Positions 41,155 through 43,669 of a DNA stretch of 64,000 nt are shown one piece after another. The notes under the pieces were generated by a model. That model was not told the DNA's origin and ran no database searches. It saw nothing but the letters and a program-made list of their open reading frames with translations. This stretch comes from an uncultured Desulfobacterales bacterium (GTDB lineage: Bacteria > Desulfobacterota > Desulfobacteria > Desulfobacterales > JAHEIW01), in assembly GCA_947259495.1 (NCBI GenBank), contig CAMYLV010000005.1, positions 55,401 through 119,400 on the forward strand, read 5' to 3'. The position numbers and the translations under genes are program-made. Positions within the stretch are counted from its first letter, which is position 1, and each line of letters opens with the position of its first letter.

Positions 41155-41766
41155 TTAATTTACCATCCCTTTTTCGATTCCCTGAAACGCCAGCCGCAGC
41201 AACCGTTCGGCGCGCTGCGCATCTGAAGACTGCGGTTGAAACTGATCCATGTGCAGACAAAAATCGAGCAGACTCAAAACCAGATAGGCGACTTCGTCGG
41301 CAGCGGTTTTTTTAACCTCGCCGCCGGATATTCCTGTATCATAAATTTTACGAATGGCGTCGATCATGTGGCGATGATAGCGCGTGAAGTCATAATCCGG
41401 TGTTCCTTGAGGTGGTCCAAATATGAGGCCATGGATCATTTTATAGAGGCTGCGGTGCGCCTCGACCTCTGCATACACCCGGCGATAAAGCATCAGGAGT
41501 CGATCCAATACATTGCCCTGCGACTCTAAAACCTCGGTCAGCAATTGTTTCTGTAGATTTTCAGCCATTTCAAGAATAGCCAGAAAAAGGCCTTCTTTGC
41601 TCTTAAAGTAGTAATAGAGCACCGGTTTGCTCACGCCGGCCTGCTCCGCAATTTCGCGCACGGATGTTCCGGCATACCCTTTTTGGGCGAACATGCCGAT
41701 GGCTGTTTCCAGTAATCGCTCTCGGGCATTGGGCGCCGCCGCCTTCAGCCTTTTTTTGTTTTTCAT
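41155..41766 (-). CDS. TetR/AcrR-family regulator
   Basis: GYAGTSVREIAEQAGVSKPVLYYYFKSKEGLF. Confidence 0.95.
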   Translation of the reverse strand: MKNKKRLKAAAPNARERLLETAIGMFAQKGYAGTSVREIAEQAGVSKPVLYYYFKSKEGLFLAILEMAENLQKQLLTEVLESQGNVLDRLLMLYRRVYAEVEAHRSLYKMIHGLIFGPPQGTPDYDFTRYHRHMIDAIRKIYDTGISGGEVKKTAADEVAYLVLSLLDFCLHMDQFQPQSSDAQRAERLLRLAFQGIEKGMVN

Positions 41767-41883
41767 GTGCTTTCCAGATTTAAGCAAATTGTATTGTGGC
41801 CCATTTTTGTGTGAAACTGCTGTAACTTAAAAAAATATTCTCATCTATTTTCATGCAAATTTCAGGTATTAAAATGTGGTACT

Positions 41884-41938
41884 TGTTTATGCTAAATATG
41901 CGGCTCTGTCAAGAAAATTACCTACCGGTAGGTAATTT
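41884..41938 (-). promoter_or_regulatory. sigma70-like promoter with an adjacent perfect 24-bp palindrome (candidate TetR operator)
   Basis: AAATTACCTACC|GGTAGGTAATTT at 41915-41938; TTGACA (41912-41907)-N17-TAAACA on the minus strand. Confidence 0.75.
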
Positions 41939-41966
41939 ATGCCATTTTGATACTCAAAATGCCGGC

Positions 41967-42037
41967 GGACAGAGGACAGAAGAATAAACGTCAGATTTTG
42001 AAAAGGGTGAGTGGCAAGCGTCAGCTAGTGGTTTGTG
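41967..42037. repeat. Short-period repeat block
   Basis: CAGAGGA CAGAAGA (same units as 5367-5415), then GTGAGTG GCAAGCG TCAGCTA GTGGTTT. Confidence 0.5.
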
Positions 42038-42255
42038 GTCTTATGCGGGCTTGTTGTTCGATCAGGTAAGGATGGTCCACAACACATAAATCACAAGCAT
42101 TCCCATTCCGTGGGCTTACCTGGCGGGCATGGAACTGGACCGCAAATGGCATGCGGATTTACAGTGAATGGCAAGCAGAAACATGAAAGCCGGCAACGGG
42201 ATCTACCCCCCTGCCCGTTACGGCGTTGTGTTTTAAATGAGTGATGATGTCAGTA

Positions 42256-42322
42256 TGGAGCGGGTGCAGGAATCGAACCTGTCTGTGACCTTGTTAGGCC
42301 TCGCTCCCCCAAGAGCCCCCGC
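42256..42322 (-). ncRNA. tRNA-Gly-like element (degenerate or minimised tRNA, 67 nt)
   Basis: GCGGGGGCTCTTGGGGGAGCGAGGCCTAACAAGGTCACAGACAGGTTCGATTCCTGCACCCGCTCCA: GCGGG/CCCGC acceptor, T-CCA end, GCTC/GAGC D-stem, CAGG-TTCGATT-CCTG T-arm, damaged anticodon arm. Confidence 0.6.
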
Positions 42323-42419
42323 TCAATGATGGTAAGGGAAGAAGGGGGTTGGGGTTCCCAAAGGCACATCAATTTTAAAGATAAAAGGGGTAAAATGAGA
42401 ACCCGCCCCCCAGCCGATA

Positions 42420-42480
42420 GAAGTGTCTGCTGCGAGCCGAACCTAAGCGTTGAAGGTCGAGGTCTCCGCAGACACTCTTC
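42420..42480. other. ~60-nt hairpin, probably part of a non-coding RNA
   Basis: AGTGTCTGC (42422-42430) / GCAGACACT (42468-42476) with an inner ACCT/AGGT stem. Confidence 0.55.
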
Positions 42481-42742
42481 GCAAATTGCAAAAAATATGC
42501 CATCAGCATGTATTTATATTTATGTATATATATCGATAGGTTAAAAAAATATAAAATTTTTAAAATTTTATAATTGGGTAATCAATGCCACAGTTTTATC
42601 ACTTAAATTACATAACATTAGGACTTAGATGCCAGGACATTTGATATTTAGCAACTATGGCGTTGTCAATCTTTACGCCATTTTGTTAAATTATTGTCTA
42701 ATTATTTTTGACAACCTATCCACCCTATGTTATGTTCCTGCC

Positions 42743-43669
42743 ATGGTCGATGATCGCAAAATACATCCTATCGGTTATGTCGCCCGCCAGACAGGCTTGA
42801 GCGCGCATGTGATCCGCGCCTGGGAAAAACGCTACGGTGCGGTGCATCCCGGTCGTACGCCCACCGGTCGCAGGCTGTATTCTGAAAGCGATATTCAGCA
42901 CCTGCAGCTGTTACAGCAAGCCTGCAAAAGGAGTCATCGCATTGCGCAGTTGTCTGATTTGGACAACACCACGCTTCGCGGAATTATCGCCAGCAAATTG
43001 GCAGATGCGGGTCCGATGGTAGCGCATCCGGTGGAGCTCTTCACACCGGTAGAATTACTTGAAGCCTGCCGTGCAGCCGTTCTCGCTATGGATGAGCAGG
43101 CGTTTGAGGCCACCTTAAACCGGGCGGCCGTCATGCTGACGCGGCCGACGCTGTTTGAAGGCGTGATCATGCCACTGGTGGTGGAAATTGGCGAGCGCTG
43201 GGTCAACGGGGAACTTAAAATTATCAACGAGCACATGGCTTCCACAATTCTCGTCTCATTCTTACGGGATATGCTTTCCGCTTTTCGACCGCTGCCGCCA
43301 ATGCCTAAAATGGTCGTTGCGACCCCTGTGAACCAATGGCATGAGCTGGGTGCTTTGATTGCTGCCATCGTGGCAGCAGAGGCCGGGTGGGGGGTATATT
43401 ATTTTGGTCCCAATTTGCCGGCTGAAGAAATTGCCGCTGCTGCCGTATACAAAAATGCCGTGGCAGTTGCACTCAGTATCGTTTACCGCGTCTCTGAAAG
43501 GCAGACCTTGCGCGAAATAAGTCGTTTACGCCATTACGTGTCCGAAGACGTGGCCATTATTGTCGGCGGGCGTGGTGTGCAGTCCTGCCAGGCGGACCTT
43601 AAGCAATTGAACGTGATGTATCCGCAGAACATCTCCGAATTTCGTGACATGATCGACGAACTTGGATAA
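42743..43669 (+). CDS. MerR-family regulator with a cobalamin-binding domain (CarH/LitR-like)
   Basis: MerR HTH (IRAWEKRYG, RTPTGRRLYS); W-x9-EH motif; HELG B12 His motif; start chosen at ATG 42743. Confidence 0.88.
   Translation: MVDDRKIHPIGYVARQTGLSAHVIRAWEKRYGAVHPGRTPTGRRLYSESDIQHLQLLQQACKRSHRIAQLSDLDNTTLRGIIASKLADAGPMVAHPVELFTPVELLEACRAAVLAMDEQAFEATLNRAAVMLTRPTLFEGVIMPLVVEIGERWVNGELKIINEHMASTILVSFLRDMLSAFRPLPPMPKMVVATPVNQWHELGALIAAIVAAEAGWGVYYFGPNLPAEEIAAAAVYKNAVAVALSIVYRVSERQTLREISRLRHYVSEDVAIIVGGRGVQSCQADLKQLNVMYPQNISEFRDMIDELG

Follow-up and report, generated by a model that had tools for sequence, protein, structure and literature searches.

In this study, we show by sequence comparison that positions 42476 to 42256 on the minus strand of the window, a 64,000-nucleotide stretch of DNA from an uncultured Desulfobacterales bacterium, make up a conserved and unannotated candidate noncoding RNA gene of about 221 nt. 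From 5′ to 3′ it is laid out as a hairpin (P1), a G/C-rich domain (P2), a variable pyrimidine linker, and a 67-nt cloverleaf with a CCA end, and its neighbors are the gene for a CarH-like MerR/B12 regulator (42629–43669, plus strand) and a TetR-HlyD-AcrB efflux operon (minus strand). The comparisons indicate that this is a conserved, strand-specific, and partly covarying RNA with an invariant sigma-54 promoter and a 3′ module derived from a tRNA-Gly. We give about even chances to the reading that it is a sigma-54-controlled, genus-specific regulatory RNA in which the tRNA-like module serves as a processing and stabilizing 3′ end.

The DNA search of relatives recovered the minus-strand block from 42620 to 42255 at 70–84% identity in 18 of the 21 genomes of the same genus and found no match to it in other genera, and conservation stops precisely where the tRNA-like element ends in its CCA. 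A further set of approximately 300 genomes from the order and phylum yielded no copy of the RNA. Scanning metagenome contigs (from White Oak River and comparable sediment sites) by pattern contributed 52 more loci, all of them with the RNA, of which 51 are full length (176–259 bits) and one is cut by a contig end. The resulting 68 copies (51 on metagenome contigs and 17 in genomes of a single uncultured Desulfobacterales genus) were all retrieved using the RNA itself as the query, and loci that have the ORFs and lack the RNA would escape such a collection. Three metagenome-assembled genomes of the genus have neither the RNA nor the TetR orthologue, and so the locus may simply be unassembled in them. 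Among the genomes searched, the RNA is restricted to one genus of uncultured relatives of sediment sulfate reducers, and no description of it was found in the literature.

The original prediction held that the region does not resemble RNase P, tmRNA, SRP, or 6S RNA and called for an Rfam scan, which bears this out: Rfam 15 gave no family match at gathering thresholds in the whole window, and at E values up to 10 there were only subthreshold, chance-level matches, the sole notable one being to the tRNA-Sec model (42258–42324, minus strand; 25.2 bits against a threshold of 47 bits). A protein-coding reading of the RNA is excluded by single-base indels between close relatives, and the element has the conserved structure, compensatory changes, and noncoding character that are expected of structured noncoding RNAs in general. 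The features of the locus are listed in the table in the order of transcription.

Features of the RNA locus on the minus strand of the window, with mean pairwise identity among the copies
Feature	Positions	Strand	Identity	Remarks
Conserved upstream block with GTAAT/ATTAC half-sites	42570..42620	minus	0.71	About 70–120 bp above the promoter; identity 0.33 just upstream
AT-rich spacer between upstream block and promoter	42503..42569	minus	0.55	GC 0.26–0.37
Sigma-54 type −24/−12 promoter, TGGCATATTTTTTGCA	42487..42502	minus	0.93	Match to TGGCAYR-N4-TTGCW in 68/68 copies
P1, 5′ hairpin from the predicted +1 (42476)	42422..42476	minus	0.72	8/15 pairs change on both sides (alignment A3); stem listed in the original prediction
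Conserved single-stranded junction	42416..42421	minus	0.88	Unpaired in both folds; identity is for 42421–42410, which includes the first P2 bases
P2, long G/C-rich stem	42337..42415	minus	0.83	Invariant C/U-rich internal and apical region (UUACCCCUUUUAC)
Pyrimidine-rich linker	42325..42336	minus	0.53	Variable in length and sequence
tRNA-Gly(GCC)-like cloverleaf	42256..42324	minus	0.89	G1 = 42322; CCA end = 42256; conserved GA before
Pseudogene remnant of the 67-aa mini-protein, outside the RNA	42168..42254	minus		75–78% DNA identity to intact ORFs of relatives
Remnant matching the 3′ end of the 111-aa membrane-protein gene	42037..42106	minus		Match to relatives

Mean pairwise identity is 0.33 far upstream of the locus and 0.57 in the downstream ORF. 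In the promoter, the GG at −24 and the GC at −12 are kept in the orthologues with the spacing TGGCAYR-N4-TTGCW; the distance from the promoter to model position 1 is 9–10 nt in all 68 copies, and that from the promoter to the CCA is 247–260 nt in every copy of the genus. Based on the promoter spacing, transcription is predicted to start (+1) at about 42476, where hairpin P1 begins. Genome-wide, there are 26 promoter-like matches to this pattern against approximately 4 expected by our own estimate. The genome contains rpoN (437 bits, above the cut-off) and about 25 genes of the enhancer-binding activator type, and no activator gene linked to the RNA locus was found among the flanking genes. The upstream block, in which one half-site is altered to GTGAT in this window, is a candidate enhancer (UAS) to which a sigma-54 activator may bind, and the spacer below it is a possible DNA-bending or IHF region, given the usual architecture of sigma-54 promoters. 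It had been suggested from the sequence that a very AT-rich, promoter-like zone lies at 42490–42600; the AT-richness is real, but the promoter is of the sigma-54 and not of the sigma-70 type. The accompanying suggestion of a minus-strand transcript that diverges from the CarH-like gene and contains the tRNA-like domain is in agreement with the invariant sigma-54 promoter and with strand-specific G-U pairs: many of the helix G-U pairs fit the minus strand only and turn into C-A mismatches when the plus strand is read.

RNAalifold and the single-sequence fold gave the same layout, and the 221-nt stretch from 42256 to 42476 folds better than its shuffles (z −2.37, a modest value from a single sequence). 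In the 52-sequence alignment, which was fitted to the model, 13 pairs changed on both sides compared with 4.9 in shuffles (0/500 reached 13) and 2–7 in slid controls, and paired cells amounted to 97.7% as against 40–55% when slid. The MAFFT alignment of 17 genomes, which is blind to structure, had 6 such pairs against 2.5 in shuffles (1/500). Support from covariation is confined to P1 and the lowest pairs of P2; the cloverleaf and the higher part of P2 are near-invariant and hence uninformative. P2 corresponds to the G-rich/C-rich pair noted in the original prediction; four pairs covary at its base and its top is invariant. A compensatory change is also found in P1 of L017, a lineage without the downstream gene cassette described below. 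The C/U tract that had been likened to an anti-Shine-Dalgarno sequence varies more than any other part of the RNA (identity 0.53). Complementarity between the linker and the D-loop was considered and rejected, because there are too many competing G-runs and C-runs and the signal reduces to approximately one clade split.

By models and alignments, the 3′ module is derived from tRNA-Gly(GCC), having lost the anticodon and kept the acceptor end, U73, CCA, T-loop, and D-loop GG. Ranking all tRNAs by plain identity gives no clear answer (48–53 of 67 positions are shared with each of Val, initiator Met, Ala, and Gly), and Gly(GCC) is singled out only by structure-aware models, for both of which, that of the whole RNA and that of the module alone, tRNA-Gly(GCC) is the best canonical match and thus the nearest canonical relative. 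Outside the genus, the whole-RNA model found only genuine tRNA-Gly(GCC) genes (25–36 bits), one such gene being in this genome (C10:152916–152995). The module-only model scored 80–100 bits on modules, which are confined to this genus; its next best match in this genome was the genuine tRNA-Gly(GCC) gene, at 37 bits, and elsewhere in the family and phylum it gave tRNA-sized matches of 33–42 bits; these were tRNA-Gly(GCC) genes, the sole other matches. There is one module copy per genome in 19 of the 21 genomes of the genus.

The module has in common with tRNA-Gly the first five acceptor pairs, U73, the CCA, the anticodon-stem sequence, and the GA leader bases. G1-C72, C2-G71, G3-C70, U73, CCA, the T-loop UUCGAAU, and the D-loop GG are invariant or nearly so (alignment A4), as in a canonical tRNA-Gly, and the module ends are identical to those of this genome's own tRNA-Gly(GCC/CCC). 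It differs from tRNA-Gly in having no 8–9 connector, a T-stem of four pairs, and a G-A mismatch in the acceptor. Where a canonical tRNA has an anticodon loop of 7 nt with a conserved anticodon, the loop here is 6 nt long, with middle bases that differ (AC, AA, AT, GC, GT, and others) among 25 copies, and standard detectors do not recognize the module: ARAGORN reported no tRNA or tmRNA in the window and none in 18 related loci. Two other origins were rejected. The match to the tRNA-Sec model is due to the extendable acceptor stem; the base at −2 varies without compensation, and a real and dissimilar selC is present elsewhere in the genome. With regard to a remnant of an integration site carrying a duplicated tRNA 3′ half, no tRNA of the genome shares its 3′ half with the module, there is no integrase among the flanking genes examined, and the module is orthologous across species.

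Variant copies and genuine tRNA genes provide some further observations. A stand-alone copy of the module (L067:1501–1572, minus strand, on contig C223 of genome G003; 80 bits by the module model) lies in AT-rich surroundings without P1, P2, or the sigma-54 promoter, and the TetR locus of the same genome is rearranged and without the RNA. In L090:530–601 (minus strand), acceptor bases 3–5 are replaced (GCUCAGG for GCGGGGG) and the acceptor stem is broken; this may be a decaying copy. Genuine tRNA-Gly(GCC) genes of several Desulfobacterales families (L050–L056, and G000 C10:152916–152995) also have the GA leader, whose bases can pair with U73-C74, and the same two bases precede the tRNA-like module.

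The RNA is smaller than was originally predicted. A structured RNA of about 450 nt had been proposed for 42030–42480, whereas the conserved RNA is about 221 nt (42476–42256) and ends at the CCA. The inverted repeats on which that proposal was based are present (42422–42476, the G-rich/C-rich pair at 42345–42411, the tRNA-like acceptor pair, and CAGGTAAG/CTTACCTG at 42063–42122), and the GCCG/AACGGG stem at 42189–42224 can be read directly in the sequence; the stems within 42256–42476 are conserved, but those within 42063–42224 lie in decayed coding sequence. Likewise, the conserved and covarying structure that was looked for in related genomes exists for 42256–42476 (18/21 genomes of the genus, with compensatory changes) and not for 42030–42255, which folds worse than its shuffles (z +1.40; 186/200 shuffles fold as well). 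In this lower half, the mini-protein remnant has lost its first ~90 nt and switches frame in a G-run, so that TDIITHLK… and IPLPAFMFLLAI are in different frames, and the counterpart of the 42037–42106 remnant in the relative L015 sits about 1.17 kb downstream of the RNA, from which we deduce a loss of ~1 kb in the window that took the PilZ gene with it. Given these gene remnants and the poor folding, the lower half is pseudogene debris in which the stems are incidental.

The locus has a conserved synteny. Upstream and pointing away are genes for a TPR protein, CarH, and often an EamA protein; onward from the sigma-54 promoter and the RNA come the cassette of a 67-aa mini-protein, a PilZ protein (44.5 bits), and a 111-aa membrane protein, and then the TetR-HlyD-AcrB operon. 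The mini-protein (67–70 aa; L002:1880–2083, orthologue L015:1273–1485, minus strand) has a signal peptide and a C-terminal anchor composed of IPLP/IPWP, a hydrophobic helix, and an RR(K/R)G tail, and its ORF has a weak ribosome-binding site. Its match to PEP-CTERM is subthreshold (15 bits against a cut-off of 20.7). A link to the PEP-CTERM/exosortase (PrsR) regulon was not supported: the tail is below the cut-off, no exosortase gene was found in the genome of the window, and no activator reaches the PrsR cut-off. The cassette has been lost to different extents. Only remnants of it are left in the window and in the near-identical metagenome strains L116 and L135, which have kept the RNA; in L005 and in the L017/L091/L104/L121 group the RNA is followed directly by TetR, the mini-protein, PilZ, and 111-aa genes having been lost, and in L141, which is cut by a contig end, TetR follows soon after the RNA. 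The L006 group has the RNA and, of the cassette, only the 111-aa gene; the RNA is kept where the mini-protein is missing (L008, L092, and L097) and where PilZ is missing (L129 and L138).

Upstream of the TetR gene (ORF 41787–41155, minus strand) and of a sigma-70-like promoter at 41815–41788, there is a perfect 24-bp palindrome at 41915–41938 (AAATTACCTACC/GGTAGGTAATTT), conserved in L017 and G003, which probably serves the efflux operon as its TetR operator. The GTAAT/ATTAC half-sites of 42570–42620 share their core with this palindrome; this could be due to chance in AT-rich DNA or could mean that the efflux repressor and the RNA are connected in their regulation. Compared with 41779–41869 of the window, L116 and L135 (98.5% identical to the window) have an extra ~255 bp in the form of a duplicated region just upstream of the TetR gene.

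The main rival to an independent regulatory RNA is a 5′ leader that acts in cis on the mini-protein/PilZ/111-aa operon, for instance one that senses a ligand or a protein, which would have no function in trans and in which the tRNA-like fold would be a structural or processing element of the untranslated region. The RNA could be mainly such a leader because, in about three quarters of the copies, the mini-protein ORF starts on the same strand only 13–17 nt past the CCA. This reading is also favored by the finding that no terminator-like site is predicted around the element (none in 41600–42800) and by the sigma-54 promoter being the only conserved promoter-like element upstream of the cassette. 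Yet the RNA, its promoter, and its structure are intact in at least three lineages without all or most of the cassette, this genome included, the consensus fold of the RNA together with the start region (linker included) has no pairing to the downstream ribosome-binding site, and no Rfam riboswitch or leader model matches. The retention of the RNA after cassette loss and the lack of predicted pairing in the start region weaken the leader reading, and we consider it rather unlikely, with the caveat that the copy set is biased toward loci that kept the RNA.

We see a smaller likelihood still that the tRNA-like module is itself the functional product, a tRNA-Gly mimic lacking an anticodon, which GlyRS would charge or a tRNA-binding protein would recognize and which would act outside translation or as a decoy, with the 150 nt upstream as its regulated leader. 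Although the module is the most conserved segment of the RNA (0.89), matches this genome's own tRNA-Gly genes at G1-C72, C2-G71, G3-C70, U73, and CCA, and occurs in G003 without the 5′ domain or the sigma-54 promoter, its 6-nt anticodon loop has freely varying bases, and the G-A acceptor mismatch, four-pair T-stem, and missing 8–9 connector also speak against it. Moreover, no gene for a Fem-type or other aminoacyl-tRNA transferase is among the flanking genes examined, and P2 is nearly as conserved (0.83), which a mere leader does not explain. That the element is a decaying relic, a tRNA-Gly pseudogene beside a conserved promoter region with no function at the RNA level, is disfavored and in our estimation very improbable: tRNA finders do not call the module, the downstream genes are decaying in this genome, and the metagenome copy L090 has a broken acceptor stem, but identity across species is 0.83–0.89 compared with 0.57 in the flanking coding DNA, compensatory changes are present, and exactly one copy per genome is found in 19 of the 21 genomes of the genus.

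Our preferred reading of a sigma-54-controlled regulatory RNA would work as follows, with the start site, processing sites, and mature ends all being predicted. RNA polymerase with sigma-54, activated by an enhancer-binding protein on the 42570–42620 block, would start near 42476, and the transcript would fold into P1, P2 with its invariant C/U-rich unpaired stretches, the loose pyrimidine linker, and the 67-nt cloverleaf. The tRNA-like module would form and stabilize the 3′ end; it is most likely a 3′-end device because no intrinsic terminator is predicted in the window and the conserved block stops at the CCA. RNase P cleavage at G1 and 3′ trimming at the CCA would cut the RNA free of the mini-protein/PilZ message, and these enzymes may also set free a distinct 5′ RNA of ~150 nt, in which the invariant C-rich loops might pair in trans with purine-rich ribosome-binding regions. 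We infer that the RNA acts independently of the downstream ORFs, since several lineages, that of the window among them, have kept it after losing those genes. It is tentatively possible that the locus is a bacterial case similar to MALAT1 and mascRNA, that is, a terminator-less sigma-54 RNA whose 3′ end is made by tRNA-processing enzymes, the mimic being released with its CCA and maybe glycylated, and RNA maturation or the state of tRNA charging being coupled to the adjacent envelope and c-di-GMP (PilZ) genes.

Several known RNAs have features in common with the element. In the vertebrate long noncoding RNAs MALAT1 and MEN-beta, RNase P cuts at a tRNA-like cloverleaf, which gives the upstream RNA its 3′ end and frees the CCA-ended mascRNA. 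A tRNA-like cloverleaf likewise stands at the 3′ end of a longer noncoding RNA here and the same mechanism is proposed, but those RNAs are eukaryotic and unrelated in sequence, the processing here is a prediction, and an mRNA follows the module in most species. Similar to tmRNA (ssrA), the element is a bacterial RNA of a few hundred nucleotides with a tRNA-like acceptor and T-arm, a CCA, and no anticodon. However, its tRNA-like fold is a self-contained 3′ cloverleaf rather than one formed by the 5′ and 3′ ends, it has neither a tag reading frame nor a series of pseudoknots, and its identity is Gly-like rather than Ala-like. A divergent or permuted tmRNA was rejected, as there is no match to the tmRNA model at the locus and a normal ssrA is found elsewhere (C25:118133–118488; 193 bits; tag ADDYEYALAA). 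YrlA and the bacterial Y RNAs are noncoding RNAs with a tRNA-mimicking module as well (T-arm, D-arm, and acceptor), and YrlA in Salmonella is expressed from a sigma-54-dependent operon. The RNA described here, in contrast, is without a Ro-binding helix; a Y RNA was rejected, since the Rfam YrlA model gave no match at the locus (E up to 10) and the genome has no Ro60/TROVE gene.

Sigma-54-dependent small RNAs include Qrr, GlmY, and CrcZ. The element shares with this group an intergenic noncoding RNA gene, a −24/−12 promoter, and an upstream activator site (here a candidate), but those RNAs end in intrinsic terminators and are without a tRNA-like module, and there is no sequence or Rfam relationship. 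Diverged tRNA copies are kept for nondecoding roles in the case of the Bacillus cereus tRNA-Other and the staphylococcal cell-wall tRNA-Gly. The Gly acceptor identity set is retained in such nonproteinogenic or pseudo-tRNAs as it is here; these are stand-alone, tRNA-sized genes with a full anticodon arm, whereas the module has a 6-nt loop without a fixed triplet and stands behind a 150-nt structured domain and a sigma-54 promoter. Among sulfate reducers, a response regulator-targeted small RNA (Dv_sRNA2) and unannotated small RNAs placed from predicted sigma-54 promoters have been described in D. vulgaris (PMC3333781).

An RNA that is defined by its promoter, covaries, and ends in a miniaturized tRNA-Gly would be a new architecture. 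The normal 3′ end of a bacterial regulatory RNA is an intrinsic terminator, and tRNA-like modules are not known beyond a small set of specialized RNAs that includes tmRNA and the Y RNAs. The element would also exemplify how tRNA-processing enzymes shape a noncoding RNA in bacteria, in a class that gene callers and tRNA finders miss entirely, and it would extend the poorly charted sigma-54 regulons in relatives of sediment sulfate reducers by an RNA.
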